Shown here: piece by piece, positions 32,031-64,000 of the stretch
Numbering within the stretch: the stretch's first letter is position 1
How the letters are laid out: every line of letters starts with the position of its first letter
Assembly (NCBI GenBank): GCA_011525805.1
Contig: WYBR01000070.1
Location: 80,588 to 144,587, forward strand
Direction: 5' to 3'
From: Vicinamibacteraceae bacterium
GTDB lineage: Bacteria > Planctomycetota > Phycisphaerae > Phycisphaerales > UBA5793
DNA length: 64,000 bases
Position numbers and translations under genes: made by a program
The notes under the pieces: model-generated
Databases searched by the model: none
The model's input: only the letters and a program-made list of their open reading frames with translations
Told to the model about the DNA's origin: nothing

Positions 32031-32119
32031 ACCTCGCCTCGCGCCGCACGACGGCCGCGACGCCCCGCGCCCCGGAACGGGCGCCACTCGACCAGTAGCC
32101 TCAATCAAGGAGGATTGTC

Positions 32120-33589: not shown

Positions 33590-33684
33590 CGCTGATAGAG
33601 AAGGATGGTGAAGGCGCCGCCCTTGTGGTGACGCTGCCGAATCCCGCTTGCGTCTTCGCCTCACGGCCTGGTCCGCGTAACTCG

Positions 33685-33692
33685 GCCGATAA
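33685..33692 (+). promoter_or_regulatory. Sigma-28 (FliA)-type -10 box candidate, GCCGATAA
   Basis: This is an 8/8 match to the enterobacterial/Bacillus sigma-28 -10 consensus, in the 400-nt spacer between the two flagellin genes. No TAAA-like -35 lies at the expected 15-nt spacing, and a strong hairpin follows it, so the function is uncertain. Confidence 0.25.
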
Positions 33693-33716
33693 CTCCACAC
33701 TCACGAAGAGCCCCGC

Positions 33717-33768
33717 GCGGCTCCCGATAATCCGGGAGCCGCCATTCGTTTTGGCGGCCGACCGCCAA
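33717..33768 (+). terminator. Tandem hairpins downstream of flagellin 1 (candidate intrinsic terminator)
   Basis: GCGGCTCCCG-ATAATC-CGGGAGCCGC (10-bp perfect stem, 33717-33742) is followed by CATTCGTTTTGG. A second hairpin, TTGGCGG-CCGA-CCGCCAA, follows. Confidence 0.5.
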
Positions 33769-33989
33769 GGGCGCAGGATTCGGAAAGCGCAAGGAAAACG
33801 ATGTTCCGGATCAATGGACTTAACCCGGTTGCCATAGCGGACGATAGCAGTGCGTGGCCGATCTGGGTGGATGCCCGCAGTGGGCGCAAGACGGCTGACG
33901 CATCTGACCGGCTTCGAAGGAGCGAGGTCGATTAGAGGCCAACAAGCAAACGCCCCGAGAAGGGCACACTTCCAGTCACGGAGGATGGC

Positions 33990-35459: not shown

Positions 35460-35540
35460 GCGAGGGCGCTCCTCCGGCGGGCCGGGGGTCTCCCCGACTC
35501 CGCCCACCGCCCCCAAGGGCGAGTTTCCTCCGTGACTTCG

Positions 35541-35576
35541 AGCGCGGCGGCCGAAAGGCCGCCGCGCTTCCTTTCC
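35541..35576 (+). terminator. Intrinsic terminator after flagellin 2
   Basis: GCGCGGCGGCC-GAAA-GGCCGCCGCGC is an 11-bp perfect stem with a GNRA-type loop (35542-35567). It is followed by TTCCTTTCC. Confidence 0.6.
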
Positions 35577-35604
35577 AGCCGACGTCGACGAATAGGATTC
35601 CCCC

Positions 35605-36720
35605 ATGCACCCGCCCAGGGAGTTCGAGTCGTTCTACTGCGGCCTGCCCGTCCTCGTGACCGGCGGCGCCGGGTTCATCGGCTCGCACCTCGTCCGCGCC
35701 CTTGCCGGCCTCGGCGCCGCCGTCCGCGTGATCGACGACCTCTCGGGCGGCACGCTCGACAACCTGGCGCCCCTGCGCGTTGAGGAGGCGAAGACGCAAC
35801 CGGGCGCGGGGGATGCGCCTCCTTCGCGTGGGTCTTCGCCTTCGCGATCACCGGCGTCGCATGCCTCTTCGCCTGCCGCGATTCAGTTCTTCCGCGCGTC
35901 GATCCTCGACGCCGACGCCCTGGCGCGCTGCTGCCAGGGGGTGGCGGTGATCTTTCACGAGGCGGCCCTTGCCTCCGTCCCCGCCAGCATCGAGCAGCCG
36001 CGGCGCTACCTCGAGGTCAACGTCCTCGGGACGCAGCAGGTGCTCGAAACGGCGGTCAACTGCGGCGTCAAGCGCATCGTCTTCGCCTCCTCGAGCAGCG
36101 TCTACGGCGACCAGCCGGCCCTGCCGAAGGTCGAGACGCAACTGCCCGATCCGCTCAGCCCCTACGCCCAGCAGAAACTCACCGGCGAGCACCTGATGCG
36201 CGTCTGGTCGCTGTGCTACGGCCTGAGCACGGTGTGCCTGCGATACTTCAATATCTTCGGGCCGCTCCAGCGCGCTGACTCCGCCTACGCCGCGGTCGTG
36301 GCCGCCTTCGCCAAGGCGCTGCTGAGCGGGCGGCGACCTCGCATCTTCGGCGACGGCTCGGCCTCGCGCGACTTCACCGCCGTCGACGACGTCGTTCAGG
36401 CGAACCTGCGCGCGGGGGCGATGCACGGCCTCGACGCTCGGCCACGGGACATCCCCCAACTCGCCGGACAGGCAATCAACATCGCCCGCGGCGAGCGCGT
36501 GACCGTCCTCGAACTGGCGCGCCTCATGGCCGAGATCGTCGGCATCGACGCGCCGCCGCTCTTCGAGCCGCCCCGGGCTGGCGACGTGCTCCACAGCCTC
36601 GCGGACATCACCCGTGCGCGGCAGTGGCTCGCGTACGAACCGCAAACCCCGGTGCGCAGCGGGCTGGAACAGACGATCGCGTGGTACCGCGAGGCCCTCG
36701 GACAGCGGGAAGCGCGCTGA
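35605..36720 (+). CDS. NAD-dependent sugar-nucleotide epimerase/dehydratase (extended SDR family)
   Basis: VLVTGGAGFIGSHLV Rossmann motif and the YAQQK catalytic YxxxK are present. A low-complexity Ser/Pro insertion of about 35 aa (aa 59-92) follows the second beta strand. Confidence 0.85.
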   Translation: MHPPREFESFYCGLPVLVTGGAGFIGSHLVRALAGLGAAVRVIDDLSGGTLDNLAPLRVEEAKTQPGAGDAPPSRGSSPSRSPASHASSPAAIQFFRASILDADALARCCQGVAVIFHEAALASVPASIEQPRRYLEVNVLGTQQVLETAVNCGVKRIVFASSSSVYGDQPALPKVETQLPDPLSPYAQQKLTGEHLMRVWSLCYGLSTVCLRYFNIFGPLQRADSAYAAVVAAFAKALLSGRRPRIFGDGSASRDFTAVDDVVQANLRAGAMHGLDARPRDIPQLAGQAINIARGERVTVLELARLMAEIVGIDAPPLFEPPRAGDVLHSLADITRARQWLAYEPQTPVRSGLEQTIAWYREALGQREAR

Positions 36721-50308: not shown

Positions 50309-50339
50309 ATACTATGACTGGAGTTGATTAGTCTGTCAA
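50309..50339 (-). promoter_or_regulatory. Candidate sigma-70 promoter upstream of dnaE
   Basis: The minus strand reads TTGACA (50339-50334), a 17-nt spacer, then CATAGT (50316-50311), with the overlapping TAGTAT. The site is locally AT-rich and about 80 nt upstream of the dnaE start. Confidence 0.35.
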
Positions 50340-50489
50340 GGTGCGAACAGGTTGTCCACACCCTTCCCACGGCCGGGGCACGGCAAAGCGCTTCGCGCCA
50401 GCGAAGCGCACGAGCCGCGCCTGTGAGGAAGCGGTGCTCGCCGAACACCAGCGCGGCGCCGCCCCGGCAGCGCGATCGCGCTGTCATCG

Positions 50490-50625
50490 CCTCCCTCCCC
50501 CGGCTCTGCGGGGAGGGCTGGGGTGGGGGTGCTTCGCCGACACGTTCGTGGCGCACTCGTCGAATGCCTCACATCATACCGTCGCCCCCACCCCTTCCCC
50601 TCCCCCGCAAAGCCGGGGGAGGGGC
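50490..50625. repeat. Inverted pair of G/C-tract palindromic elements
   Basis: Copy 1 (50490-50531) is CCTCCCTCCCCCGGCTCTGCGGGGAGGGCTGGGGTGGGGGTG. Copy 2 (50584-50625), read on the other strand, is GCCCCTCCCCCGGCTTTGCGGGGGAGGGGAAGGGGTGGGGGC. Each has an internal CCCTCCCC...GGGGAGGG hairpin. Confidence 0.7.
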
Positions 50626-50715
50626 ATGCAAACTCACGCTTTCGCGAATCGTGATGGCCCTGACAACCCTGCGAATCGCGACAATCCGCCGCGCGGCAAT
50701 CCCTATGATCCATCG

Positions 50716-51009
50716 ATGCGAGTCGAGTTCCGAACGTTGAACGCCCAGCGCCTGCGGCAGGTCCGCGAGCGCATCGCCGCCCAACCCAACTGGGTCGTCC
50801 GGGCGGCGGCGCTGACCTTCGCGATCATCGTCCTTCTCCCAGTGGTCCTGCTCGTGGCCGTCGCGTTCGTCCTGGCCGCGCTGGTGCTGCTCGCACTGGG
50901 GCTGGTCAATCGCGTGGCCGGTCTGTTCGCGGGCCGGGCGGACGGTCTGTGGCGCGGCCGCGACCCGCAGGGCCGGCGCAACGTCAAAGTCCTGCCGCGC
51001 GAGGGGTGA
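50716..51009 (+). CDS. Small membrane protein (hypothetical)
   Basis: The ATG at 50716 lies inside track ORF 50341-51009. It encodes MRVEFRTLNAQRLRQVRERI... followed by a long hydrophobic stretch (AAALTFAIIVLLPVVLLVAVAFVLAALVLLALGLV). The upstream part of the track ORF crosses repeat elements and is rejected. Confidence 0.4.
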   Translation: MRVEFRTLNAQRLRQVRERIAAQPNWVVRAAALTFAIIVLLPVVLLVAVAFVLAALVLLALGLVNRVAGLFAGRADGLWRGRDPQGRRNVKVLPREG

Positions 51010-51038
51010 GGCGCCTTCGGGCTTCCGCCTCCTCACAT

Positions 51039-52406
51039 TCAGCGCCTCAGAAGCACCGCCTGGCCGGTGGTGAGTCGGATCGGCCGCACACCGCTGCCGG
51101 CGGCGAACTCATCCACCGCCTGCCGCGCGCCCGGGCACGTCAGAAACCCGTCATCATCGATGATGATGATCCCGCCGGGAGTGAGGCGAGGGTAGAAGAA
51201 CGCGAGCGCAGCGCGCGTCGGTTCGTAGAGATCCACATCGACGTGGACGAAAGCGAAGCGCGCCTCGCACGCCGCCTCGAAGCACGCAGGGATCCAGCCT
51301 TGATGAAACGCCAGGTCGCTCCAGCGCGCCAGGGCGGCCCGCACATCTTCAATTCCCCATCTCATGTCGCCCGGCCGCCATGGTCTCACTCCCGGCTCGG
51401 GGCGGTCGGCGGGCGTCGGCGTCGAGAGGCCCGCGAAGGAGTCGAAGAGGTGGTGGGCGTAGGCGGCGTGGCGCGGCAGCATCTCGGCGTAGCGGCGGAT
51501 GATCCACGAGCCGAGGCCGCGGTAGACGCCGCACTCGGCCGTGTCGCCGTCGAGCCGGCCCAGCGAGAGCAGGCATTCCTTGATCGTGTAGTAGCGGTCG
51601 CGCGGCCCGGGGCCGCAGAGCGCTTCGCCCTCGGCGCAGATGCGGTTGAACTCCTCCTCGCGCGGCCAGTAGAGCAGATCGTCGCGCAACTTCGCCGCGC
51701 CGCGCGCCGCCTCGGGCTGGTGCGTGTCGATGGGAGTCGTGATGATCGAGACCTCTTCACGCTTGCGCGCCGCGAAGAGAAGCAGCGTGTATTCGCGCAG
51801 CGAGTCCGTCTGGAAGGGCGCTTCGAGGCAGCCGATCGCTTCGATCTCACCAAGGCGCAGCGAGCCGCTGCGGGGCAGGCGGGCCAGCCAGCCTCCATCG
51901 ATCTCGAAGCCGTTGGCGCGATAGAACTGGTCGAGCACGCGGGGCTGCAGGGAGTAGAAGCCGTGGTTCTCCCAGCCGGCGACGGGTGAGACATGCAGGA
52001 CGGTCCCGCCGGTTCGGAGCATCGCGACGATGCCGCGAAGGGCCGCGGGAATGTCGAAAATGTGCTCAATCGTTCCGCCGTCGATAATCAGATCGAAGCG
52101 GCCGCGCCACGGCTGCGGCGGAGGCTGCGAGAGGTCGTGGAGGATCGAGGCGCCTTCGCCGCCGAACAGATCGAGCGCGTGATACTCCCGAAAGCCCAGG
52201 AGAGAGAAGAAGCGATCCGCGGCAACGCCGGATCCCGGCGCGAGCGCCTGGATCGGCGCGGCGACGGGCCGCCCCTCGAGCAGGTCGCGGACCTCCGACT
52301 CTGTGGCGCCGATGTCCTGCACGCCCAGCGTGAGCACCGACCTCCCCGGCGCGCGGGCACGCTGCCGCTCGATGAGCCAGCGGACGATCGGCAGCGCCAG
52401 GCCCAT
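51039..52406 (-). CDS. Two-domain methyltransferase: N-terminal class I SAM-MTase-like domain plus C-terminal TylF/MycF-type O-methyltransferase domain
   Basis: The N-terminal half has VLTLGVQDIG...ASILHDL...FDLIIDGGTIEHIFD...GGTVLHVSP. The C-terminal half has DTAECGVYRGLGSWII...LFDSFAGL...FAFVHVDVDLYEPTRAALAFFYPRLTPGGIIIIDDDGF, the macrocin-O-methyltransferase family pattern. Confidence 0.7.
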   Translation of the reverse strand: MGLALPIVRWLIERQRARAPGRSVLTLGVQDIGATESEVRDLLEGRPVAAPIQALAPGSGVAADRFFSLLGFREYHALDLFGGEGASILHDLSQPPPQPWRGRFDLIIDGGTIEHIFDIPAALRGIVAMLRTGGTVLHVSPVAGWENHGFYSLQPRVLDQFYRANGFEIDGGWLARLPRSGSLRLGEIEAIGCLEAPFQTDSLREYTLLLFAARKREEVSIITTPIDTHQPEAARGAAKLRDDLLYWPREEEFNRICAEGEALCGPGPRDRYYTIKECLLSLGRLDGDTAECGVYRGLGSWIIRRYAEMLPRHAAYAHHLFDSFAGLSTPTPADRPEPGVRPWRPGDMRWGIEDVRAALARWSDLAFHQGWIPACFEAACEARFAFVHVDVDLYEPTRAALAFFYPRLTPGGIIIIDDDGFLTCPGARQAVDEFAAGSGVRPIRLTTGQAVLLRR

Positions 52407-52442
52407 CAGCGACTCCCCTCCATCACGCGCGAATGTCCTCGT

Positions 52443-53975
52443 TCAGGCGGTGCGGGGGCACTCATGCGCCGCTTTGCTCCACCGAGAGGGCGGGTCATAG
52501 ATCTGCTTGAAGGGAAGGTCATCGCGGTAGAAGCCCAGTGACGCAACGCGCCACCGTCGCAGCAACTGATCGGCCGGAGTGAAGTGCCGCGCCTTGGGTG
52601 CGATGCCCACTCCCACATGGTACTTGCCGTCGCACAGGAACAGCCTCGGGAACTCGACGCGGAAGACCTGCCGGCCGCGCCGGAGGTTGAGACGCTGCGG
52701 CGAGGGTCGCCCCGTCTCGTTGAGTTGTGTGAGGTTCGTCGAAGTGAGCACGTGAATGTCCGCCTCGTTGAAGATCTGCACGCCGATGGCGACGTTGTCC
52801 TTGCGCACGCTGCTGTCCACGGTGATTTCGACCGTCACGGGCTCGCCGGTGTGGAAGCGGTCTCGCGGCTCGCCCGTGGCGTCCAGCACGCGCACCGAGG
52901 CGAGGCGGACGAGATTGAGATGCAGGATCGGCGGGCAGCGGTCTTCGGGATCGTCAAGCAGCGCCTGCACCTCCGGCGACAGCGGCGGCACCGAAGGATC
53001 ATCCTCATCAACGGGCGGCGCGCCGCGAGCCGCGGCGTCCTCGTCGCGGATCGCCCCCGAATCACCCAACGCCCCCGCCGCCCTCGCCCCAGCCACCCCC
53101 GCGCCGCGCCCCTTCGTCGTCTTCGCAAACTCCGCGAGCAGTTCCTTCTCGTACATCTGCGTAATCTCACGGCTCGGGCCGTCGGCCGCGAGTTCGCCTC
53201 GCCGCAGGTAGAGCGAGCGCGAGCAGAGCGTCTCGATGAAGAACATGCTGTGCGAGACGACCAGCGCCGTCGCCCCGCCGGTGCACAGGTCAAGGATGTG
53301 GTTCGTACACTTCTGCTGAAAGGCGAGATCGCCCGTCGCCAGGGCTTCATCGACGATGAGAATGTCCGGTCGGCGGCAAAAGGTGACGGCGAAAGTAAGG
53401 CGAGACTTCATCCCGCTGGAATACGTGCGAAACGGCTGGTCGATGACGTGCCCCAGGCCGGAAAAGTCGATGATCCAGTCGATCGACTCTTCAATCTCGG
53501 CCTTGGTGTAACCGAGGCAGTAACCGCCCATGAAGATGTTCTCGCGGCCGGTGTACTCCTCGTGGAAGCCGGTCCCGAGTTGGAGAATGGCGCGGAGGTT
53601 GCCGGCGATGCGGAACGAGCCTTGAGTGTGGTCGAGCGTGCCGGCGAGGATGCGCAGGAGCGTGCTCTTGCCCGCGCCGTTGGCGCCGACGACGCCGACG
53701 ATCTCCCCGCGCTTCACCGTGAACGACACGTCGCGCAACGCCCAGTGCGGCTTGTAGAGCGGGCGGCGGACGATCAGTTCCTTGAGAATCTGCGAAGGGC
53801 TGGAGTAGATCTTGTAGAGTTTGGAGAGGCCGCTCACGGCAATCGCGGCGCGAGGCTCGGGGCTTGAGGACTGAGAAGCAGCCTGCGGCGGGAGCCGCAG
53901 GTTGACGGCCGAAGCCCCCGTCGCGGACGCGGCGACTTCAACGGGTTGGCGCGATGGAGTGAGCACTTCCGTCAT
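52443..53975 (-). CDS. wzt: Wzt/TagH-type polysaccharide-export ABC transporter ATP-binding protein with a C-terminal beta-sandwich (Wzt_C-like) domain
   Basis: Walker A GANGAGKST, signature YSSGMKSRLTFAV and Walker B ILIVDEALATGD are present. After an Ala/Gly/Asp-rich linker, the C-terminal 160 aa or so (VRLASVRVLDATGEPRDRFHTGEPVTVEITV...LCDGKYHVGVGI) fit the carbohydrate-binding domain pattern of Wzt proteins. Confidence 0.85.
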   Translation of the reverse strand: MTEVLTPSRQPVEVAASATGASAVNLRLPPQAASQSSSPEPRAAIAVSGLSKLYKIYSSPSQILKELIVRRPLYKPHWALRDVSFTVKRGEIVGVVGANGAGKSTLLRILAGTLDHTQGSFRIAGNLRAILQLGTGFHEEYTGRENIFMGGYCLGYTKAEIEESIDWIIDFSGLGHVIDQPFRTYSSGMKSRLTFAVTFCRRPDILIVDEALATGDLAFQQKCTNHILDLCTGGATALVVSHSMFFIETLCSRSLYLRRGELAADGPSREITQMYEKELLAEFAKTTKGRGAGVAGARAAGALGDSGAIRDEDAAARGAPPVDEDDPSVPPLSPEVQALLDDPEDRCPPILHLNLVRLASVRVLDATGEPRDRFHTGEPVTVEITVDSSVRKDNVAIGVQIFNEADIHVLTSTNLTQLNETGRPSPQRLNLRRGRQVFRVEFPRLFLCDGKYHVGVGIAPKARHFTPADQLLRRWRVASLGFYRDDLPFKQIYDPPSRWSKAAHECPRTA

Positions 53976-53998
53976 GATCGGCAGCGCGCCGGGCGCGG

Positions 53999-56900
53999 CT
54001 ACGCTCCTCCCACCAATCGTCTCACGAACGATCCGATCCCGCGGCGCCGCTCGAAGGACTCGGTCGGGGCGGGCTGCGCGGTGCGGCGCACGAAAATGCG
54101 ACTCGAAAGCACGAGCAACTGCTCATCGCTCATCGCCGCGAAGCGGGCCGAGAGCAGAGGCCGGACCGCCGCCAGTTGCTCCCGCGTCCCCAGCAGGTTC
54201 TCATCCACGCGATCGATCGAGAACCCGGCGCGGCGGAAGTCCTCCACGAGTTCGTGCGAGCGCACTCGGTTGCCGTTCTCGTTGCGGCTGCGCAGGAAGA
54301 TGCGGCGATACTCCTCGTCGTCGTAACGGAGGAAGTCGTAGGGGCGGTCGAAGTTCTGGTGGTCGCGGAAATCGACCTGGTGAACGCCCAGGCCGCCGCC
54401 CCTTGTGAGACGCGCCAGTTCGCACGCGGTCAGGTACGTGTCGCCGACGTGTTCGAGCACGGCGTTGGAGACGATGACGTCAAACGAGCTGTCCGGCAGG
54501 TCGCTCGGCGGCGCGGCGAGGTCGCAGGCGTGCTGGGCGATCGTCTCTCTGAGGTGCCGCCCCGCGGCGACGATCGCGGCCAGCCCGTCCCACTTCGCGC
54601 GCGGCAGGCGCCTGGCCGCCGCCGCCCTCAGGCCCGCGTAGAAGCGCGGATGATACGACGGATCCCACTTCGCGAGATACTTGTCGAGCACCGCGACGCG
54701 CGCGCCCAGCGCCTGGCAGATGAGCATGCTGCCGAAGTTGCGCCCGGGGCCGAGTTCGAGCACGCTCAGGCCCGTGAGATCGGGAATGTCGTCAAGCACG
54801 GTCACCTTGGCGAAGTCGGGCAGTTCGCCGGAAAAGCGGCCGAAGTGCCGGCCGATGCAGTAGGCGTAGTCGATCGCGTTGCGCAGGCAGTAGCCGACCT
54901 GGTCGTTGAGGACGTCGGTGAACTCGTCGCCGTCGGTGCCCGCCGCGGCTGCGGCGGCCTCATCCGCGCGCGGCTGGGCGAAGACGCGCGCGATGGCGTC
55001 GTCGGCGCCCGCCCCCTGCTCCGCGCCGCTTCGCCGGACGAAGAAGCGGGCGCTGACGATCATCAACTGCTCATCGCCCATCGCGGCAAAACGGTCGATG
55101 AGGTGCGCCCGGACTTCGGCGAGATGCTCGGGCGAAGCGAACATGTTGGGCTCGACGCTCTCGACGACGAACCCCGCCGCGGCGAAGTCCGACGCCAGTT
55201 CGTGCGGGCGCACCCGGTTGCCCTGGCTGTTGCGCGATGTGAGAAACGTCTGCGCCGCGCTCTCTTCCGGAATGGTGAGGAAGGTCAGCGGACGATCCTG
55301 CGCGCGGTGGTCTCGGAAGTCGACCTGGTGGACGCCGACGCCGCCGGGCCGCGTCAGCCGCGCGAGTTCACCCGCCATCGCGGCCGTGTCGCCGATGTGC
55401 TCAAGCACGGCGTTGGAGACGATCGCGTCGAAGGAGGCGTCGTCGAAGGAGCAGGGAGGCTCGGCGAGGTCGCCGGCGGCGGCGCGGACGATCGACTCAT
55501 CGTGCCGCGACGCCCCGATGATCCGGTCGAGGCCCGACCAGTCGGCGTAGGGAAAGTGCGACTCGCACTCGCGCTTGAGGGCGCGATAGAAGTGGGGGTG
55601 ATACTTCGCGTCCCACTGCGCGAGGTACTTGTCGAAGACGGCGACCTGGGCGCCGCAGGCGCGGCAGAGGAGCATCGTGCCGAAGTTCGGCCCGGGGCCG
55701 AGTTCGAGAATCGACAGGCCACGCAGGTCCGGCAGCACGCCGTAGCGCTTGGAGTAGTGATCGCTCGACCCCGGCATCGCGCCGCGCCCGAACTGCTGCG
55801 CCACTGCCGAGGCGTAGTACACGCCGTTGACGATCGCGTAGCGCACGTGCTCGTCGAGGGCGCCCTCGACGGCCCAGCGGTCGTCGGTCAGGTCGATGGC
55901 CGCCACCTTCTTGGCGATCGGCCCCTCGCCGAGGCGCTTGAGAAAGAAGCGGCCGCTCACCACCGCCAGTTGCGCATCGCTCAGCGCGGCGAACCGGGGC
56001 TGCAACCGCGGCCGGACCTCGGCGAGGTGCTCGGCCGGCGCCCAGATGTTGGCGTCAAAGCGCCTTATCTCGAAGCCGCTGCGCCGGAAATCCTCCCCCA
56101 TCGCCTCGTGGCGCACCCGGTTGCCGTTGCCGTTCATCATCTCGTCAAAGAGCCGCCGGTACGCCTCGTCGGGCATGGTGAGGAACTCGAGCGGGCGCGA
56201 AAAGTCTCGGTGGTCGCGGAAGTCGACCTGGTGGATGTTGATCCCGCCCGGCGCGGTCAGGCGCGCCATCTCCGCCGCCGTTTTGGGAACGTCGCCCACG
56301 TGCTCGAGCACCGCGTTGGAGACGATCACGTCAAACGACGCGTCGGCATAGCCGCTGGGCGGCTCGGCGAGGTCGGTCCGATCCTGCGCGATGATGTCGG
56401 GCAGGTGGTCGGCTGCATTGATGATGCGGTCGAGCGAAGACCAGTCGCGCCGCGGCCACTTCGCCCCCACCGCCTCGCGCAGGAAGCGGTAGAAGCGCGG
56501 GTGATAGACCTCGTCCCAGTCGGCCAGGTACTTGTCGAGCACGGCGACGCGCGCGCCGAAGGCGTGGAGGATCAGCGGCGTGCCGAAGTGCCGGCCGGGG
56601 CCGAGTTCGAGCAGGCGCAGCCCCGCCACTGAATGGACACTATCGGCCCTCGACGTTGAACGGTCTCCGCGTCCATTCAATGGCGGGGCGAGCGGCATCG
56701 CCTCATCGCTGCGCCGGCCCAGTTCGCCGCAGATGAGTTGCACGTACTCATCCGCCACGCGCACGGCATACTCGACATCTTCGCGCACCTGCGCATCGGT
56801 GATCGCGCGGAGGTAGAAGCGGCCGCTGATGGGACGCAACTGCTCATCGCGCATCGCGGCAAAGCGCGGCGCCAGCCGAGGCCGCAGCGACGCCAGATAG

Positions 56901-57658
56901 CCCTCTTCGGCGAGCAGGTTCGGCCCGAAGTGCTCCACGCGGAATCCCACCTTGCGGAACAGGTCGCGCATCTCGTCGGGACGCAGCCGGTTGCCGCGCG
57001 TCCAGCGACCCGCCGCCCGCTCCTTCGCGACCGCTTCGTCCGCGAAGGTAAGGAACTCGAGTGGCCTGGCGTAGTCGCGCGAGTCACGGAAGTCGACCTG
57101 ATGGATGCCGAAGCCGTTGGGCCGGGTGATGCGGCACAACTCCGGCAGCAGGCTCGGCAGGTCCACCTGGTTGAGGATCGCGTTGCTCACGATGCAGTCG
57201 AACGAAGCGTCGTCGATCGCCAGCGGACCGGAGAGCGAGGCGATCGTGTGCAGCGCCAGCGCCGGCGATTCGTACGAACCGGCAGCGAGAACGTCATCGA
57301 TGAAGGACCAGTCGGCTTCGGGATACTCCTCCGCCCCGACGCGGGCCAGCGCGCGGAGACAGGCCGGGCTGCCCTCGCTCCACTTCACGAAGTGCGTATT
57401 GATCGCGGCGATCTCCGCGCCGAAGGCGCGGCAGACGAGCATCGGGCCGAAGCGATTCGGCGTGCCCAGTTCCGCGATGCGCAGCCCCGAGAGGTCGGGG
57501 AAAGGGTGCATCCGCCGCGCGAGGTGGTTCGCCATCGTCTTGGCGCACTCAAAGCCGTTGTCGATCGCGTATCGAACCTCCGCGAGCGCGGCGGGATCAA
57601 GGGGCGCATCGACGGCCAGAGCGTGGGTGGAAGCGTGGTGCATCGTCTGCGACATCAA
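53999..57658 (-). CDS. Tetra-modular SAM-dependent methyltransferase (four tandem paralogous MTase modules in one 1219-aa protein)
   Basis: Modules of about 290-315 aa repeat four times. The anchors are L(E/A)ELG(P/T)GxxFG (aa 63, 351, 652, 968), ASFD.IVSNA.L(E/N), HQVDFRD (aa 186, 476, 777, 1093), GNRxR..E....F...GF and RFAAM.DEQL...S.RFF..R. Confidence 0.8.
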   Translation of the reverse strand: MMSQTMHHASTHALAVDAPLDPAALAEVRYAIDNGFECAKTMANHLARRMHPFPDLSGLRIAELGTPNRFGPMLVCRAFGAEIAAINTHFVKWSEGSPACLRALARVGAEEYPEADWSFIDDVLAAGSYESPALALHTIASLSGPLAIDDASFDCIVSNAILNQVDLPSLLPELCRITRPNGFGIHQVDFRDSRDYARPLEFLTFADEAVAKERAAGRWTRGNRLRPDEMRDLFRKVGFRVEHFGPNLLAEEGYLASLRPRLAPRFAAMRDEQLRPISGRFYLRAITDAQVREDVEYAVRVADEYVQLICGELGRRSDEAMPLAPPLNGRGDRSTSRADSVHSVAGLRLLELGPGRHFGTPLILHAFGARVAVLDKYLADWDEVYHPRFYRFLREAVGAKWPRRDWSSLDRIINAADHLPDIIAQDRTDLAEPPSGYADASFDVIVSNAVLEHVGDVPKTAAEMARLTAPGGINIHQVDFRDHRDFSRPLEFLTMPDEAYRRLFDEMMNGNGNRVRHEAMGEDFRRSGFEIRRFDANIWAPAEHLAEVRPRLQPRFAALSDAQLAVVSGRFFLKRLGEGPIAKKVAAIDLTDDRWAVEGALDEHVRYAIVNGVYYASAVAQQFGRGAMPGSSDHYSKRYGVLPDLRGLSILELGPGPNFGTMLLCRACGAQVAVFDKYLAQWDAKYHPHFYRALKRECESHFPYADWSGLDRIIGASRHDESIVRAAAGDLAEPPCSFDDASFDAIVSNAVLEHIGDTAAMAGELARLTRPGGVGVHQVDFRDHRAQDRPLTFLTIPEESAAQTFLTSRNSQGNRVRPHELASDFAAAGFVVESVEPNMFASPEHLAEVRAHLIDRFAAMGDEQLMIVSARFFVRRSGAEQGAGADDAIARVFAQPRADEAAAAAAGTDGDEFTDVLNDQVGYCLRNAIDYAYCIGRHFGRFSGELPDFAKVTVLDDIPDLTGLSVLELGPGRNFGSMLICQALGARVAVLDKYLAKWDPSYHPRFYAGLRAAAARRLPRAKWDGLAAIVAAGRHLRETIAQHACDLAAPPSDLPDSSFDVIVSNAVLEHVGDTYLTACELARLTRGGGLGVHQVDFRDHQNFDRPYDFLRYDDEEYRRIFLRSRNENGNRVRSHELVEDFRRAGFSIDRVDENLLGTREQLAAVRPLLSARFAAMSDEQLLVLSSRIFVRRTAQPAPTESFERRRGIGSFVRRLVGGA

Positions 57659-57670
57659 GGTCTCCAGCGG

Positions 57671-59707
57671 TCAGGTGCGCACGGGTTGGGCGGCGATGGT
57701 GTGGATCGCGGGCGGGCCGTCGTCGCTCGCGGCCGGCGCTGCCTCGGCGCTTGGCGCGCGGCTGAGGGTCCGGGCGGGCGTTTCGATCCGCGCACCGCCG
57801 CCGCGCAGCGCCGTTTCGTAGACGCCGCAGGTCAGGTCCACCATCCGGTCGAGGTTGAAGCGATCATCGACGTACGCCTGCGCCGCGCGGCCGAAGCGCT
57901 CGCGCAGCCCGGAGTCCTGCAGGAGTTTCTGGAGGCTGATGACCAGCCCGGCCACGTCATCGACGCCGCAGACAAAGCCAGTCTCGCCGTGGGCGACGGC
58001 GTCGGGCGTGCCGCCGGCGTCGGTCGCGACCACGGGGATGCCGACGTGCTGGGCCTCGAGCGCGACGTTGGGACAGCCCTCGTAGCGGCTCGTGAGCAGC
58101 AGAACGTCAGCGGCGCTCATGATCTCGACGACGTTGTCCACGCGCCCCAGCAGGGCGATGTTCCGCGCCAGGCCACGCCGCGCGATGATGGCGCGGACGT
58201 CGGCCTCGAGCGGGCCGCTCCCCGCGACCGCGACGCGCAGGCCCGGCAGCCGTTCGCGAAGCAGGGCGATGACCTTGAGCATCAGTTCCGGCTGCTTCTC
58301 CTCATCGAGACGGTTGACGACCGCGACGACCGGCGCCTCGGGCGGCAGGCCCAGCCGCCGCCGCGCCGCGAGGCGCTGTGCCGGCGTCGGCCGGTCAAAG
58401 TGCTCGCGGAACAGGCCGTTGAACACGATGTGAAAGCGCGACTCGTCCAGCCCGACGTACTCGGCGTAACTCGCCGCGCCGCGATGCGAGTTGGCCATCC
58501 AGTGAATGCGCCGGCTCGGCGCCGCGACGCGGTACCAGTCCACGAAGGGCGAGTAAAAGCGCGGAAAGTGCGTCGGGTTGTAGTTGCGCGTGCTCAGGAT
58601 CACGCTGGGCACGCCCGCCGCGATCCCCGCCAGGCCCGCGATCACATTCGGATGATCGAGCCATGCGTGCAGCACGTCGGGCCGGTGCGCGGCGAGTTCG
58701 AGCGCGAGGTTGGCGACGTAGGAGCGAATCGCGTCCGGGGCCGCGGCGATGAGGTCCCACCGGACGCGCTCCAGCGCCGCGGCATCGACGCGCAGGCCGC
58801 TCCCGGCGCGCCGGGCGTCAACGCCCGCCCGGCTCAGCAGCGGCAGGTAGTGCCCATGCTGGCCGACGAGATCGTGCTGCGTGCGCACCAGGCACTCATG
58901 GCCGCGCTGCACCAGGCCCAGCGCGGTGTTGCACAATTGCCGCTCCGCCCCGCCGCTGTAGAGGCAACCGGTGTATTGAATGATGCGCAGAGGCCGCTCC
59001 GGAAGCGCCGCCGCCGGCTTGAACGAAGCGTTGTCGCGCTCGATGAACTGCCTCCACGCCGACTCGGCGTCGCCGCCGCGCTTCGACGCGATCGGATGCA
59101 CGATCACTTCGCCCTCGGGCAAGGCGGGCGCCGGCTCGGCGCGGCGCAGCCAGCGGCCCAGGCCCGCGGCGGCTTGCTCGTGGTCGATGAGCAGGCCGGG
59201 GAAAAGGCGGCGAAGCAGCGGCTTGATGCGCCGGCGCGCCAGCAGGTCGGCGAGCACCTCGGCCACGTGTACGCGCACCCAGCCGCGATCGTCGAGAAGC
59301 CACAGGTCCGTCACCCCGGCGCGGCGGAGCCACATCATCGCCTTGATGGAGAGATTGGCTCGCGACGTCGGAACGACCGCCGTCAACTCACCCGGCGGCA
59401 GCGGCGCCAGGCGCGTCAGCGACGGCAGCGGGCCGGAGACGTCCAGTCGCCACAGCGGCGCGTGGCTGCCGATCGGCCGCGCCCCGCACGCCGCCACCTG
59501 CGCCAGCACGAAGGCGCTGAAGAGATCGAGCCAGGGGCCGGCCGCCAGCGTGCCGGAATGCACCGCCACGCCGCCTTCGTCGTGCCACTGGCGCACCGCC
59601 AGCGCCAGCGCATCGAGGTCGGCCGCGCCGGCCATGCCGGCGGGGGACGGAACAGAGGCATCGGCGCCGCGGCCTTCAGGGCCGGCGATCGAGGGCGGAA
59701 GCGTCAC
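57671..59707 (-). CDS. GT4-family glycosyltransferase with an uncharacterised N-terminal extension of about 270 aa
   Basis: The C-terminal two-thirds has RIIQYTGCLYSGGAERQ...(GT-B N domain) and LLTSRYEGCPNVALEAQHVGIPVVATDAGGTPDAVAHGETGF (the EX7E-type GT4 motif). The GTG at 59707 overlaps the upstream stop (GTGA). An alternative ATG is at 59635. Confidence 0.75.
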   Translation of the reverse strand: MTLPPSIAGPEGRGADASVPSPAGMAGAADLDALALAVRQWHDEGGVAVHSGTLAAGPWLDLFSAFVLAQVAACGARPIGSHAPLWRLDVSGPLPSLTRLAPLPPGELTAVVPTSRANLSIKAMMWLRRAGVTDLWLLDDRGWVRVHVAEVLADLLARRRIKPLLRRLFPGLLIDHEQAAAGLGRWLRRAEPAPALPEGEVIVHPIASKRGGDAESAWRQFIERDNASFKPAAALPERPLRIIQYTGCLYSGGAERQLCNTALGLVQRGHECLVRTQHDLVGQHGHYLPLLSRAGVDARRAGSGLRVDAAALERVRWDLIAAAPDAIRSYVANLALELAAHRPDVLHAWLDHPNVIAGLAGIAAGVPSVILSTRNYNPTHFPRFYSPFVDWYRVAAPSRRIHWMANSHRGAASYAEYVGLDESRFHIVFNGLFREHFDRPTPAQRLAARRRLGLPPEAPVVAVVNRLDEEKQPELMLKVIALLRERLPGLRVAVAGSGPLEADVRAIIARRGLARNIALLGRVDNVVEIMSAADVLLLTSRYEGCPNVALEAQHVGIPVVATDAGGTPDAVAHGETGFVCGVDDVAGLVISLQKLLQDSGLRERFGRAAQAYVDDRFNLDRMVDLTCGVYETALRGGGARIETPARTLSRAPSAEAAPAASDDGPPAIHTIAAQPVRT

Positions 59708-61983
59708 GAGGCGGGACTCCCGTTGCGGTGGGGACTCACGGCCGGTCGGTCCAGGCCATCCTCCAGATCGTAGACCTTTCCCTCGACCGTCAAACACCGG
59801 CGATCGACCTGTTCGAGCGACTGTTCCAGCAGCGACTCGATCCGTCGGAGAAGTTGGCGCCGGTCGTCGTCGAGGCGGGCCGAGAGGCGGCTGATCTGGG
59901 CCGTCAGTTCCGTGTGCATCTGCTCGCGGCGGCGCTGCTCGGCCTCGCGCTCAGCGAGGTGTTCGGCCGCAGTGGTTTCAAGGCGCAGGCGGAGGCGCTC
60001 GTTTTCCGCGCTCAGCCCGGCCGCCCGCGCTTCCGCGGCAGCGAGGGCGGCGCGGCCTTCGGCGTCCTGCACTCGCAGCGATTCGAACCGGGCGGCCGCC
60101 TCGCGCAGCGCCGCTTCCTGTCGCGCCGCCTGCCCGCGCGCCGCTTCGAGATCGCGCGTCAGGTGCTCCAGGCGCTCCGCCAGGCGCTGCTCGCCGGACT
60201 GCCGCTCGGCGAGCGCCTGCTGCGCGGCCCGGAGTTCGCCGGCCGTCTCGCTTCGCTGCCGCTGCGCCTCGTTGAACACGTTGGCGTGGTGGTTGATCTC
60301 CTTGAGCCAGTTGGCCGCCTCGCGCTCGCGCTGGGCTCGGGCGGCCGCGAGTTCCGCGGCGATCGCCTCGACGGCCGCCTGCGTCTGGTCGAAGCGCTGC
60401 TGCAGCGCCGCGACCTGCTCGTCGGTCTTCACCCGGCCGCGCCACTGCTCCGTCTCGCGCTTCGCCGCTTCCAGACCCGCGTTCACCTCGTGCAACTGAC
60501 CCTCGAGGGCGTTGGCGCGGCTCCACCATTCGAATCGCTCCTCGCGCACGCGGCGCTGCAGCGCCGTTTCGTCGCGGCGAAGTTCGAGAATGCGATCGGA
60601 CTGGCTGGTATGGAGGCGAAGTTCCGACAGCAGCGCCGCGGCTTTCCTCGCTCGCAAGCGACCCTTGCCCCTCGCGCCGGCCTTGGCGCACACCGCCATG
60701 ATGACCTGCGGCCCCGCCGCCTCGACGGACCACGGCCGTTGAACCTCGAAACGGCCTCCTCCCGGCGCGCTTGAAGCCTCCTCCTCGAAAACGAGCGAGC
60801 CCGTAACGTCCGCCTGCCGCAGCCAGCGAATCGAATCGAAGCGATCGAGCCACTGCCCAAGTTCCTCGCGCGACGGGATGTGGAGGTGGAACGCGTTGCG
60901 GTGCTGGTTGATCCGGTCCCACGACGTCTCGAAATCTCGATCCGGCACGGAGATCAGCAGCAACCCGCCGGGCGAGAGCAGGCGATCAAACTCCGCGATC
61001 GCCTCGCGCTGGCCGCTGAGATGCTCGAGCGCTTCGAGGCAGACGATGAGATCGAAGGCGTCGTCATCGAAGGGGAGCGGTGTTTCGTTGAGATCCCACT
61101 GCACGAACTCCGCCCGTTCATCGTCACCGAGGCGCTCGCGGCCGAGCCTGATCGCCTCGGGCGATATGTCCAAATTGACGACGTGCTTGGCCCCCGCCTT
61201 GAGATACTCCTCCGCCCCGAGCCCCGCCCACCCGCCCGCGTCGAGCACGCGGCGGCCCTTCGCCAGCGCGGCGGCAATGTCCAGCCGCGCCCGGCAATGG
61301 GCCATGATCGTCGCATCGTCGAGCACCGGGTGGTCCGACATCGGCGCCGAAAGGCGCACGAGACTCAACCCCGCCAGCGCCGCTGCGGCAGCGGAATTGT
61401 CCGGCGGGCGCACGCCGAATCCCACGGCGACGGCGGCTTGTTCGATCCTCCGCAGCGCCGCCTCAACATCCGCATCGCTCTCGCGCGGCACGATCTCGAT
61501 CGACGAACTCCACTGCGTGCGCCCGTGGATCAGCCGGAGCATCGCCTCGGGGTCGCGGCCGAGGCGCGCGAGGCCGTCGAAGATGACGATCTCGACGGGC
61601 CCTTCGATCTGATCGGAGAGACCCTCGTCGGTCCCGTGGAGATACGCGAAGCCCCAGCGGCGGTGGTAGTTGTCGTGCTGGAGGCCGTCGAGGGGGTGGG
61701 TGAGGAGGCGCGGCTCGCGCTGAACGATGGCGTCGCGCAGCGCGGGCATCAGGGCGTCGTCGCGCGGCCGGACCCACGGCCGCTCATCGGGGCAGCACAC
61801 CTGCACCTGAGAGCCGGCGCAGGCAAACCACAGGCCCAGCGCGAGGTCGGCCGGCTCATCCTGGATGATGGTGAGGCGCTGCCACAGCGACCGCCCGCAG
61901 CCGCCCGGCCAGCGAGCAATGATCCCCTCCGCTCGACCGATGATGTTGCGGGCCGCTGCGCCGCTCTCCGGGCCAGCAGGCAT
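59704..61983 (-). CDS. Methyltransferase with an N-terminal unknown domain and a C-terminal coiled coil of about 280 aa (WbdD-like chain-terminator/ruler architecture)
   Basis: Class I MTase motifs are RVLDAGGWAGLGAEEY...VVNLDIS...DAFDLIVCLEALEHL...LLSPGGLLLISVP (aa about 235-350). From about aa 450 to 730 the sequence is continuous Ala/Arg/Glu/Gln/Leu-rich and heptad-like (ALQRRVREE...LEAAKRETEQW...LAERLEHLTRDLEAARGQAARQEAALREAAARFESL...). Confidence 0.75.
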   Translation of the reverse strand: MPAGPESGAAARNIIGRAEGIIARWPGGCGRSLWQRLTIIQDEPADLALGLWFACAGSQVQVCCPDERPWVRPRDDALMPALRDAIVQREPRLLTHPLDGLQHDNYHRRWGFAYLHGTDEGLSDQIEGPVEIVIFDGLARLGRDPEAMLRLIHGRTQWSSSIEIVPRESDADVEAALRRIEQAAVAVGFGVRPPDNSAAAAALAGLSLVRLSAPMSDHPVLDDATIMAHCRARLDIAAALAKGRRVLDAGGWAGLGAEEYLKAGAKHVVNLDISPEAIRLGRERLGDDERAEFVQWDLNETPLPFDDDAFDLIVCLEALEHLSGQREAIAEFDRLLSPGGLLLISVPDRDFETSWDRINQHRNAFHLHIPSREELGQWLDRFDSIRWLRQADVTGSLVFEEEASSAPGGGRFEVQRPWSVEAAGPQVIMAVCAKAGARGKGRLRARKAAALLSELRLHTSQSDRILELRRDETALQRRVREERFEWWSRANALEGQLHEVNAGLEAAKRETEQWRGRVKTDEQVAALQQRFDQTQAAVEAIAAELAAARAQREREAANWLKEINHHANVFNEAQRQRSETAGELRAAQQALAERQSGEQRLAERLEHLTRDLEAARGQAARQEAALREAAARFESLRVQDAEGRAALAAAEARAAGLSAENERLRLRLETTAAEHLAEREAEQRRREQMHTELTAQISRLSARLDDDRRQLLRRIESLLEQSLEQVDRRCLTVEGKVYDLEDGLDRPAVSPHRNGSPAS

Positions 61984-62158
61984 ATGGGTTCCCTTGCGGT
62001 CTGCTCCGCTTTTCCCAGCCGAATCTAAGGATTCCGTCGCCGGCCAGTCAACACGAACCCGGCGAAAGTGGACATCCGCCGCCAGCGCGTCATGATGCTG
62101 GGAAAGGGGCCCTCGCCCCGGACCGCCCCGTGGACACGATCTGAGGAGGTTCCCTTCG

Positions 62159-64000
62159 ATGAAGGCGCCCCGTCCCCGCGATCGCCGGAACTTCGTCCTG
62201 GCCCGCGGCCCGGCGCTTCATCCGCGGCCGCGCTTCGAGGCGCTCGAGAAACGGGCGCTGCTCTCCGCCGCTGTTCTCGGCGGCGACCTGCGGCGATTCG
62301 AGTTCCACGACGCCGACGGCGATACGGTTCTCGTACGGCTCATCGGCCGCGGTACGGCCGAACTCACTCTCTCCAATGATGCGGCCGACTTCGCAGACCT
62401 TGAACGCGTCGAGTTGCGCGGCGTAGATGCGGGCACGACACTGCGCATCGACGTACTCCGCGACCACGAGGGAGACGAGGCAACGACCCTCGGCTCGCTC
62501 ACCGCCGATGGGGCGCTCAATCGACTCGATCTGCGCCGCGTCACGCTCATCGGCGCGGGCATCGACGTCAACGGCCCGCTCAATCGACTCGATCTCGCCG
62601 CAGTCCGCGGCGAACTCAGCGATCGCACGGCAATGAGCATCCGCGGCGACCTGGGCCTCGCGCGATTCCTTGGCGACGTCGTCGGGGCCGACGTGGCGAT
62701 CGCCGGCGCCGCCGGCGCCATCATCATCCGCTCGGGCAATCTCGCTTCGAGCGCGATCACCGCCGGCGGAGACCTCGGCCGCTGCATCACGCTTGATCGC
62801 GGCGGCCTGGCCGGTCTCATCCTCGACACCGAACTCGTCATCGGCGGCTCAATCGAAACATGGCGGACGCAGGGACTCTCAAACGTCTCGGGACGGATCG
62901 GCGGCGATCTCGCTCGCCTTGGTGTCACCGGCAACCGCACCGAGACTTTCGGCACAATCGATCGAACGCGCCTTGCCGTCGAAGGTGAACTGACGCACCT
63001 GCGCCTCGGACGCGACGTGCAGGCCGACTCGATCCTCGCGGCAGAGCGCGGCTTCGGACGCATCACCATCAAGGGCGGCGTCCGCGACTCGATGATCCTC
63101 GCGGGCGCGGCCCTCGATGCGGACCTGTCTCTCGACCATGCGACCTTCGCCGTCGCGCCCATCGGCAGCGGTCGCATTGGCGGCGACCTGCTCGACTCCA
63201 TCCTCGCCTCGGGAGGCGATCCCGGCGAAGACGGCCTCTTTCGCAACCACGAGATTCTCGAAGGCGGCTCCATCGGGCGACTGACCATCGGCGGCTACGT
63301 CGCCGGCGTCCACAGCGAGCATCCGAATCCCGGCGTTTACGCGGCGCAGATCGATCGCCTCAGCGTGCGCGGCTGGCGCCTCGACGGCAAGAGCGATGAC
63401 CTGCGCGCGGGGATTCTCGGCACGGCGGTGATCGATCCCCTGCCCGATGCCGCCGCAGCGCTGACCGAACTTGACGTGCGGCAGATTCTCGAACAGATGA
63501 TCGCCCGCGCGACGCAACTGGGCGTGAACGCAACGCTCGCCGTGACCGACCGCGAGGGCAACATCCTTGCCGCCGTGCGCATGACCGACGGCTCACTCGC
63601 GCCCGACCCCGGCACATCGACGATCACCGGCGGGGGCAGCGGCGGACTTGAAGGCGTGACCGTCGCCTCATCCATCACGGCCGTGACGAAAGCGGGCACC
63701 GCCGCGTTTCTCTCGACGACGGGCAATGCGTTCACGACGCGCACGGCCGGTCAGATCATCCAGCCCAACTTCCCGCCGGGCGTGCGCTTCCAGGATTCCG
63801 GGCCGCTCTTCGGCGTGCAGTTCTCCTCGCTGCCCACGAGCGACATCAACCGCCTGCCGCTGGGCTTGTCGGCCGATCCCGGCGGCGTGCCGCTCTACCG
63901 CAACGGGCAACTCCTCGGCGGCGCGGGCGTTGAACTCGACGGCACGTACACGTTTGACCCCAGCCCGATCGGCGGGCGGGCGACGCTCGAAGAGCGCATC
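62159..64000 (+). CDS. Secreted repeat protein with a C-terminal GlcG/DUF336 (haem-binding-like) domain; the 3' end lies outside the window
   Basis: GAGGAGG lies 9 nt upstream of the ATG at 62159. I translated 614 codons to the window edge and saw no stop. The N-terminus MKAPRPRDRRNF...RPRFEALEKRALLSAA has the LExRxLLSA-type motif. The middle has Gly/Leu/Asp-rich repeats (GRIGGDL..., GRLTIGG...). From about aa 455, LTELDVRQILEQMIARATQLGVNATLAVTDREGNILAAVRMTDG...GGVPLYRNGQLLGGAGV matches DUF336. It is absent from the ORF track because it has no stop in the window. Confidence 0.65.
   Translation, partial: MKAPRPRDRRNFVLARGPALHPRPRFEALEKRALLSAAVLGGDLRRFEFHDADGDTVLVRLIGRGTAELTLSNDAADFADLERVELRGVDAGTTLRIDVLRDHEGDEATTLGSLTADGALNRLDLRRVTLIGAGIDVNGPLNRLDLAAVRGELSDRTAMSIRGDLGLARFLGDVVGADVAIAGAAGAIIIRSGNLASSAITAGGDLGRCITLDRGGLAGLILDTELVIGGSIETWRTQGLSNVSGRIGGDLARLGVTGNRTETFGTIDRTRLAVEGELTHLRLGRDVQADSILAAERGFGRITIKGGVRDSMILAGAALDADLSLDHATFAVAPIGSGRIGGDLLDSILASGGDPGEDGLFRNHEILEGGSIGRLTIGGYVAGVHSEHPNPGVYAAQIDRLSVRGWRLDGKSDDLRAGILGTAVIDPLPDAAAALTELDVRQILEQMIARATQLGVNATLAVTDREGNILAAVRMTDGSLAPDPGTSTITGGGSGGLEGVTVASSITAVTKAGTAAFLSTTGNAFTTRTAGQIIQPNFPPGVRFQDSGPLFGVQFSSLPTSDINRLPLGLSADPGGVPLYRNGQLLGGAGVELDGTYTFDPSPIGGRATLEERI

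Follow-up and report, generated by a model that had tools for sequence, protein, structure and literature searches.

The locus considered here raises the question of why a bacterium would carry the same methyltransferase module four times over in a single polypeptide chain, and what such a chain would be used for. The gene in question, called MT4x in what follows, lies in the genome of an uncultured marine Phycisphaerales bacterium (Planctomycetota), on the minus strand of the window, by which is meant the whole 64-kb stretch of contig WYBR01000070.1 that was analysed. MT4x encodes four tandem class I S-adenosylmethionine (SAM) methyltransferase modules, referred to as M1 to M4 from the N-terminus, of which M2, M3 and M4 retain every residue that is invariant in their family while M1 carries a remodelled cofactor pocket, and it is embedded in what reads as an operon for a surface polysaccharide. 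We consider it moderately likely that its product is a cytoplasmic multi-site glycan methyltransferase in which three active modules are joined to one non-catalytic binding module.

Methylated sugars affect the recognition of bacterial surface polysaccharides by transporters, phages, grazers and antibodies, and, to our knowledge, methylation in the known systems that depend on an ATP-binding cassette (ABC) transporter is carried out either by single-domain enzymes or by a coiled-coil terminator. The locus deserves attention given that (i) many methyltransferase domains grouped around one glycosyltransferase would imply a heavily methylated glycan in abundant, uncultured marine Phycisphaerales, (ii) MT4x would be a natural case both for how domain duplication partitions regiospecificity among copies and for the recruitment of a cofactor-dead enzyme copy as a binding module, and (iii) relatives with one, three and four modules at the same operon position provide a comparative series. 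If the proposed function is correct, the modules could be used as regiospecific glycan-methylating tools.

One reading frame, four modules

The listed reading frame of MT4x starts with a TTG codon at 57658 and runs uninterrupted for 1219 codons. Its second codon is an ATG (57655), which has a GGAG 6 nucleotides (nt) upstream and lies 13 nt past the stop codon of the upstream gene (57671-57673). The true start is probably this ATG, and the product would probably be 1218 amino acids (aa) long, given the GGAG and given that the database protein P0001, which is 98% identical, also has 1218 aa.

A preliminary description of the locus had proposed a fourfold repeat of a module of about 290 aa, with a set of conserved anchors, and this is borne out by the protein itself. 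Each anchor has exactly four occurrences, spaced 288-316 aa apart: ELG[TP][GP]..FG at aa 63, 351, 652 and 968, SNA[VI]L at aa 158, 447, 748 and 1064, HQVDFRD at aa 186, 476, 777 and 1093, GNR[VL]R at aa 222, 512, 813 and 1129, and RFAA[ML] at aa 265, 555, 856 and 1172. When the chain was cut at aa 292/293, 590/591 and 905/906 and the pieces were compared pairwise by BLASTP, the modules proved to be 36-52% identical over 238-286 aa (E 1.6e-52 to 8.5e-97), a similarity far above chance. M1, already singled out as the most divergent copy, is 36-41% identical to the others, and the module coordinates first estimated are consistent with the boundaries set here (Table 1). The claim that the repeat also exists at the level of the DNA stands as well, weak though the repeat is there, but the antisense reading frames offered in its favour merely mirror the high GC content and lend no independent support. 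Codon-aligned, the modules are 52-62% identical in nucleotides; direct repeats in the DNA are limited to stretches of 61-173 nt, which reach 70-82% identity and whose starts lie 948, 903 and 864-870 nt apart, and the DNA comparison of the gene found no near-identical copies among its modules. The repeat is ancient, with no recent duplication of the DNA.

The assignment of all four modules to the class I methyltransferases, likewise made at the outset, is upheld by Pfam, by an AlphaFold2 (AF2) model of M3 and by Foldseek. Methyltransf_23 matches MT4x with 135 bits (cutoff 27) and Methyltransf_11 with 114.5 bits in four stretches, and a hidden Markov model (HMM) of the module family finds four full-length domains of 235-338 bits each. 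The model of M3, built on an 86-sequence family alignment, has a mean predicted local distance difference test score (pLDDT) of 90.8 and a predicted TM-score (pTM) of 0.89. Its top Foldseek matches in the Protein Data Bank (PDB) are all class I methyltransferases (2o57, AtmM 6uvq, MitM and RebM; E 1e-12 to 1e-10), and AtmM and RebM, which are among the best of them, are sugar O-methyltransferases. The modest TM-scores of these matches (query 0.37-0.42, target 0.26-0.61) would fit a Rossmann-type core with an additional N-terminal helix and a C-terminal subdomain.

By sequence, the modules are assigned to one subfamily of class I SAM-methyltransferases of the Pfam Methyltransf_23/11 type, an uncharacterised subfamily with no solved close relative and no NCBIfam model that matches at its cutoff. 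A phmmer search of PDB sequences with the whole of MT4x gave 0 matches, and a PDB search with a profile of 86 family members gave matches confined to the generic beta4-beta5 region of many methyltransferases; by these sequence and profile searches there is no solved structure of a close relative. NCBIfam returned for MT4x only sub-threshold matches to unrelated named methyltransferases, which were not used for function. TylF (PF05711) has no match in MT4x, the TylF domain of this locus belonging to a neighbouring gene with two methyltransferase-like domains (dual MT), and a tblastn search with M3 against 72,556 plasmids gave no match at 1e-10. In a library of 1.84 billion representative proteins the subfamily amounts to 1303 clusters at E <= 1e-30, spread over several phyla and recognisable by the signature motifs ELGPGxxFG, D(K/R)(Y/F)L, SNAVLEH, HQVDFRDH, RPLEFL and GNRxR. 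Most members are stand-alone proteins of about 270-330 aa (from Nitrospira, Hyphomonadaceae, Planctomycetota, WOR-3 and others), which are 34-51% identical to M3, have motifs in common with it and occur in the same glycan-cluster context as MT4x; they differ from it in having a single domain, in that none of them has the SAM pocket of M1, and in their generic annotations, being uncharacterised themselves.

The rarity that had been suspected for such an array is confirmed by an exhaustive profile search of this library, in which multi-module proteins must top the ranking because profile scores add over modules: it contains one four-module cluster, one three-module cluster and a handful of two-module proteins. 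The four-module proteins form nine clusters at 90% identity, the clusters examined come from dozens of contigs and different samples, and their public annotation is solely 'methyltransferase domain-containing protein'. When one genome per species was scanned, the four-module open reading frame (ORF) turned up intact in 5 Planctomycetota genomes, mostly labelled Phycisphaerales or Phycisphaerae, with 63-86% protein identity to the copy in the window. A six-frame scan of all fetched loci turned up no orthologue split into separate genes, the domains (four or three) lying in a single frame at each of the six loci, and no module departs from the class I fold. The array is to be described as very rare and lineage-restricted, and as built from ordinary parts, its methyltransferase fold being generic and the export pathway a familiar one.

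In a neighbour-joining tree each module groups with its positional counterparts in other proteins (bootstrap 96-100%), which indicates that the duplications are older than the split of the lineages; the copies appear not to have been homogenised since. The deep branching order of the four modules has bootstrap values of 20-42%. In the three-module protein P0009 the first module falls with M1 and the second with M2, and this protein may have lost one module or may predate the split between M3 and M4.

Three intact modules and a remodelled pocket

In the family alignment six residues are invariant, namely E62, G64, S158, A160, H187 and D190 (numbered as in M3), and four more, G66, D86, E163 and H164, reach a conservation of at least 90%; M2, M3 and M4 of every orthologue carry all ten. 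The motifs ELGPGxxFG and AV(L/F)DKY are found in M2-M4 of nine out of nine four-module proteins, at positions that are 96-99% conserved across 301 family domains. A Gly-rich motif I and an acidic end of beta2 are present in M2, M3 and M4, and absent from M1. On these residues M2, M3 and M4 are predicted, most likely correctly, to be catalytically competent.

M1 had been called degenerate, and its substitutions (Table 1) do fall in the SAM pocket. The combination T65/P66/N(H)86/N163/Q164 is exclusive to the first module of the three- and four-module arrays, where it is present in all ten proteins; the remaining 291 of the 301 family domains are canonical save for three single-site exceptions. 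The corresponding motifs of M1 read ELGTPNRFG, AAINTHF and SNAILNQV (in orthologues ELGTPxRFG and AA(I/V)(N/H)THF), and HQVDFRD, RPLEFL, GNRLR and SGRFYLR are retained. Columns that are conserved within modules and differ between them number 43, about half of them (22) specific to M1, and these are concentrated in motif I and behind beta2 and beta4, the parts that normally contact SAM in the class I methyltransferase fold. The module is not decaying, since its mean pairwise identity among orthologues (0.75) is like that of the other modules (0.72-0.79; linkers 0.55-0.60) and its ratio of nonsynonymous to synonymous substitution rates (dN/dS) of 0.11-0.30 is similar to theirs (about 0.1-0.3). 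All modules are under purifying selection. From the alignments we conclude that the cofactor pocket of M1 was remodelled once and then maintained, and that M1 appears to be functionally required; it probably has the methyltransferase fold with no cofactor site, and is probably not a working methyltransferase.

Internal duplications of class I methyltransferase domains within one chain, serving sequential methylations, have been described for the nematode enzymes PMT-1 and PMT-2, for plant PEAMT and for PRMT7 and PRMT9. In these proteins one copy can be vestigial or inactive and yet be retained. PMT/PEAMT chains were among the matches of the PDB profile search and of Foldseek, the sequence matches being limited to the generic beta4-beta5 region. 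They and PRMT7/9 differ from MT4x in having two domains and in acting on small molecules or proteins.

For the arrangement of the modules, a full-length AF2 model was made from a 10-sequence alignment of an 87%-identical orthologue, P0002, which stands in for the protein of the window. It has the same order of secondary-structure elements four times, with a pLDDT of 75 and a pTM of 0.43. The junction between M1 and M2 is only about 2 residues long and highly conserved, and the linkers between M2 and M3 and between M3 and M4 are long, of low confidence and poorly conserved (identity 0.55-0.60), a pattern in the model that speaks for M1 and M2 as one rigid unit, with M3 and M4 attached behind it by flexible tethers; a compact arrangement such as a pseudo-tetramer, instead of a linear array, is also possible. 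The idea of a rigid scaffold in which spacing matters finds no support, in view of the pTM of 0.43 and the low-confidence, poorly conserved linkers, and the neighbouring coiled-coil protein (MTcc), suggested as its spacing partner, is better read as a separate terminator or ruler of the WbdD type. MT4x itself has no coiled coil, the P0002 model consisting of four alpha/beta domains only. Behind M4, the tails of the orthologues share a basic amphipathic motif (Table 1) whose hydrophobic moment reaches up to 0.87 in their alignment, and the P0002 model places a helix at 1178-1194, at its C-terminus, with low pLDDT; the tail is possibly a membrane- or partner-binding helix.

The operon and the proposed function

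MT4x is part of a tightly packed minus-strand operon with the gene order MTcc, GT4, MT4x, Wzt and dual MT (Table 1). This order is kept in five genomes and in the three-module relative L006, except that L001, the closest relative, has no dual MT. GT4 is the sole glycosyltransferase of the operon, and its best named match, the TviE model, scores 166 bits, far under the cutoff of 733. The coiled coil of MTcc, identified by composition and a heptad heuristic, comprises about 270 residues among which A/E/R/L/Q are frequent and proline is absent; SMC-like matches lie at aa 458-742, and by analogy MTcc is a candidate for a WbdD-like chain terminator or molecular ruler; a phmmer search of the PDB with MTcc gave 32 generic methyltransferase matches, none of them labelled WbdD. 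Its residues 1-230, which have no Pfam match, may on sequence grounds be another degenerate methyltransferase-like domain. In the MTcc homologues of L006 and L007 there is a second, partial match to the methyltransferase-family HMM in the N-terminal region.

A coiled-coil terminator together with the carbohydrate-binding domain of Wzt is the signature of ABC-transporter-dependent assembly with chain-length control (PMC11231755, PMC3482155, PMC9445017). By its gene content the operon is accordingly to be read as an ABC-transporter-dependent (Wzm/Wzt) pathway that would build and export a surface polysaccharide. In L002-L006 the operon is headed, at positions about 600-5600, by genes for Wzm, a radical-SAM/SPASM protein, a protein of 130 aa and, last, an amidotransferase of the AsnB type. 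This Wzm-SPASM-AsnB block is absent from the window and from L001, where a gene with an HbpS-like domain is transcribed divergently instead (62096-64000 on the plus strand of the window). Wzm is encoded neither in the 64-kb window nor in L001, and in this genome is presumably encoded elsewhere.

The module family as a whole also appears, from its fusions and neighbourhoods, to be tied to glycan pathways. In P0011 a single module of the family is joined directly to Wzt and lies in the same AsnB-MTcc-X-module cassette, and modules are fused to GT4 enzymes in P0015, P0019 and P0023. Outside the orthologue group, six of the seven examined contexts of family members are glycan clusters (with Wzm/Wzt, GT4, AsnB-like proteins, further methyltransferases and, once, rml genes), the exception being P0070, which has no obvious glycan cluster. 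Of the two possibilities raised in the preliminary description, that the array methylates a repeating substrate or acts as a scaffold, the repeating substrate is strongly suggested by the polysaccharide operon.

The comparison with described systems helps to divide the labour among these proteins. The WbdD systems of E. coli O8/O9a and Klebsiella O3/O5/O7/O12 follow the same operon logic, with a methyltransferase-coiled coil protein (here MTcc), a GT4 enzyme and a Wzt with a C-terminal carbohydrate-binding domain (PMC11231755, PMC3482155). Unlike WbdD, MT4x has neither a coiled coil nor a kinase domain, and the PDB searches gave no WbdD match for MT4x or MTcc; since the coiled coil is found in MTcc and not in MT4x, the terminator role would by analogy belong to MTcc. 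Described systems of the WbdD type also differ in having no multi-methyltransferase protein, none having turned up in a search of the open-access literature, in which no glycan pathway with three or four methyltransferase domains in tandem came to light; a literature search for methylated lipopolysaccharide in Planctomycetes found nothing relevant. The nearest functional analogues of MT4x would be two other sets of enzymes. PA5457 and PA5459, which are partly redundant and jointly required for the rhamnan of the common polysaccharide antigen of P. aeruginosa, resemble MT4x in being class I methyltransferases that lack a coiled coil and belong to a Wzm/Wzt polysaccharide locus (PMC3560663). They are separate single-domain proteins whereas MT4x has four fused domains, one of them degenerate, and the likeness drawn here is one of function. 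The mycobacterial 3-O-methylmannose polysaccharide (MMP) is made by the GT4 enzyme ManT and the regiospecific MeT1 and pMeT3, giving a heavily methylated homopolymer (PMC9883506). The MMP system shares with this operon a high ratio of methyltransferase domains to glycosyltransferases and differs in being cytoplasmic, not exported by Wzm/Wzt, and equipped with stand-alone methyltransferases; the likeness is here one of pathway.

The following course of events can be proposed. The single GT4 would build up the polymer on a lipid carrier, on the inner side of the membrane, and MT4x would methylate this lipid-linked glycan in the cytoplasm prior to capping and export, M2, M3 and M4 providing three active sites for one glycan, with a hydroxyl or possibly a carboxyl or amide group as the target. 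M1 would serve as a non-catalytic glycan-binding or docking domain, a role suggested by the loss of the SAM residues, the retention of putative acceptor-site motifs and the rigid join to M2. MTcc would then cap and terminate the chain in the manner of WbdD, and Wzt would read the finished chain through its carbohydrate-binding domain for export by Wzm/Wzt. More tentatively, and with rather less than even confidence, we suggest that M2, M3 and M4 are specialised for different positions on the glycan, on account of their positional orthology without homogenisation and of the module-specific residues conserved beside the invariant motifs: the signatures GNGNRVR, SQGNRVR and ENGNRVR are each conserved among orthologues, and the residues after HQVDFRDH differ as well.

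Methyltransferase-like domains in the operon number about seven to eight (four in MT4x, one or two in MTcc and two in the dual MT) against the one glycosyltransferase, a ratio that hints at an unusually methylated surface glycan. A bolder picture, to which we would give little credence as yet, is that the product is an exported, near per-O-methylated and hence unusually hydrophobic homopolysaccharide, the equivalent, at the cell surface, of the polymethylated polysaccharides of mycobacteria; MT4x would then act as an assembly line with three regiospecific sites for each new residue, and the SAM-dead M1 would read the chain or the methylated product and so hold the enzyme on the polymer.

Several points weigh against the multi-site reading of MT4x. 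No Wzm, initiating transferase or sugar-nucleotide genes adjoin the operon in the window, and the full-length model of P0002 is weak overall by the scores given above and says little about the arrangement of the modules. The inactivity of M1 can be called no more than probable because the Asn at the position of the beta2 Asp may still be able to form a hydrogen bond with the ribose, and because some methyltransferases bind SAM through non-canonical motif I loops. M2, M3 and M4, finally, differ at few conserved positions, 21 of 93 conserved columns, which makes an identical specificity of the three possible.

From this last point follows the strongest of the other explanations, in which M2-M4 share one regiospecificity and methylate an identical position in one repeat unit after another, the flexible linkers raising the local concentration of active sites in the interest of avidity or processivity. 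The common catalytic and cofactor residues of the three modules and the small number of conserved columns in which they differ speak for it, as does the beads-on-a-string layout implied by the long, poorly conserved, low-confidence linkers M2-M3 and M3-M4. It is nonetheless unlikely, though still a serious contender, since it does not sit well with positional orthology at 96-100% bootstrap and no sign of homogenisation, with conserved signatures peculiar to each module directly beside the invariant motifs, or with relatives in which the same cassette runs with one or three modules.

Alternatively, the active modules might poly-methylate only the non-reducing terminal sugar, building for instance a tri-O-methyl cap as an export signal for the carbohydrate-binding domain of Wzt. 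The Wzt of this operon does have a Wzt_C domain, such domains recognise modified termini (PMC9445017), and P0011 has one family module fused to Wzt; against this, MTcc is already present in the operon as a dedicated coiled-coil methyltransferase of the type that performs termination in known systems (PMC11231755), and MT4x is without a coiled coil, which renders the cap quite improbable. It is more improbable by far that only one module is active and the other three are structural pseudo-enzymes, or that the substrate is not a glycan and instead a lipid, a protein or a small molecule: matches limited to generic methyltransferase families, with no NCBIfam model at its cutoff, and the occurrence of P0070 outside an obvious glycan cluster would allow it, and the invariant residues of M2-M4, all kept under purifying selection, together with the Wzt and GT4 fusions and the six glycan contexts in seven speak against it. 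That assembly collapse, a frameshift or mis-assembly joined separate genes can be put close to nil, nothing favouring it beyond truncated fragments on very short contigs (P0024 of 376 aa on a 2.3-kb contig and P0286 of 274 aa on a 2-kb contig), when the single ORF is intact in five independent genomes, it occurs in nine clusters and on dozens of contigs from different samples, and a repeat collapse is not possible because the modules are only 52-62% identical in their DNA.

Table 1. Features of the MT4x operon, with positions in the window; substitutions in M1 are given in M3 numbering.
Feature	Position	Strand	Residues	Description
MT4x, four-module methyltransferase gene	53999..57658	-		stop 53999-54001; orthologues 63-98% identical, intact
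M1	56783..57634	-	aa 9-292	class I methyltransferase fold, remodelled SAM pocket
M1 substitution, motif I				P65-G66 in family, T-P in M1
M1 substitution, beta2 Asp				D86 in family, N in M1 (H in one orthologue)
M1 substitution, after beta4				E163-H164 in family, N-Q in M1
M2	55916..56782	-	aa 293-581	family-invariant residues all intact: ELGPGRHFG, AVLDKYL, SNAVLEHV, HQVDFRD
M3	55013..55882	-	aa 593-882	family-invariant residues all intact; structure modelled
M4	54074..54943	-	aa 906-1195	family-invariant residues all intact
C-terminal tail	54002..54073	-	aa 1196-1219	basic amphipathic motif (K/R)R..IGSFV(K/R)RLV conserved in orthologue tails
MTcc	59704..61983	-	759 aa	N-terminal domain of about 230 aa; class I methyltransferase aa 238-385 (Pfam); coiled coil aa 455-728
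GT4 glycosyltransferase	57671..59797	-		Glycos_transf_1, Glyco_transf_4; N-terminal extension of about 250 aa; start codon uncertain
Wzt	52443..53975	-		ABC_tran aa 80-212; C-terminal Wzt_C carbohydrate-binding domain aa 356-463; TagH/Wzt-type NCBIfam matches
Dual MT	51039..52406	-		N-terminal methyltransferase-like domain and C-terminal TylF-type O-methyltransferase

Locus variation and the rest of the window

The operon region (51039-61983) is a mosaic when set against its relatives. Compared with L005, the identities are 88% for Wzt, 95% for the dual MT and 91% for dnaE, and only 63-67% for MT4x, GT4 and MTcc; compared with L001, it is MT4x (87%), GT4 (83%) and MTcc (77%) that are closer, with Wzt at 79% and no dual MT. 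This pattern of identity to L005 and L001 suggests a recombination breakpoint near the MT4x/Wzt boundary, as in serotype-determining loci. The gap of about 730 bp between dnaE and the dual MT (50311-51039) holds no convincing ORF, and the corresponding interval is longer by roughly 1.9 kb in L002 and L004.

The 130-aa protein of L002-L006 resembles part of the SPASM protein. The AsnB-like amidotransferase recurs beside these methyltransferases and GT4 enzymes across phyla (L007, L008, L011 and L012), being duplicated in L011, where rmlCBDA genes are present, and fused to GT4 in a protein of 1307 aa in L012. The association of AsnB, methyltransferase and GT4 looks like a widespread, seemingly undescribed cassette for a modified, methylated glycan.

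Elsewhere in the window, no match to a tRNA or an Rfam family was found in the whole 64 kb. A type IV pilus/type II secretion-like set occupies 1554-13366 on the plus strand, with PilM, PilN, two T2SSE ATPases, a T2SSF platform protein and a protein with the prepilin-type N-methylation motif, as well as two large ORFs (9520-10254 and 10290-12782) without a Pfam match. It is followed on the minus strand by a region of lower GC content (0.61, compared with about 0.68 elsewhere) with two large FG-GAP-repeat proteins and then a PglD-like hexapeptide sugar acetyltransferase (13610-17551 and 17322-18542). A flagellar block extends over 21376-36720 on the plus strand, with flgF/G-like rod genes, flgA, flgH, flgI, flgN and flgK, and after these come three flagellin-family genes (28974-30989, 32099-33589 and 33936-35459). 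Glycosylation of flagellin was considered as a role for MT4x and rejected, its operon lying 16 kb from the three flagellin genes, past housekeeping genes, and having a Wzt with a carbohydrate-binding domain. Behind the flagellin genes, at 35596-36720, is a gene for an NAD-dependent sugar epimerase/dehydratase, and flagellin glycosylation is possible there.

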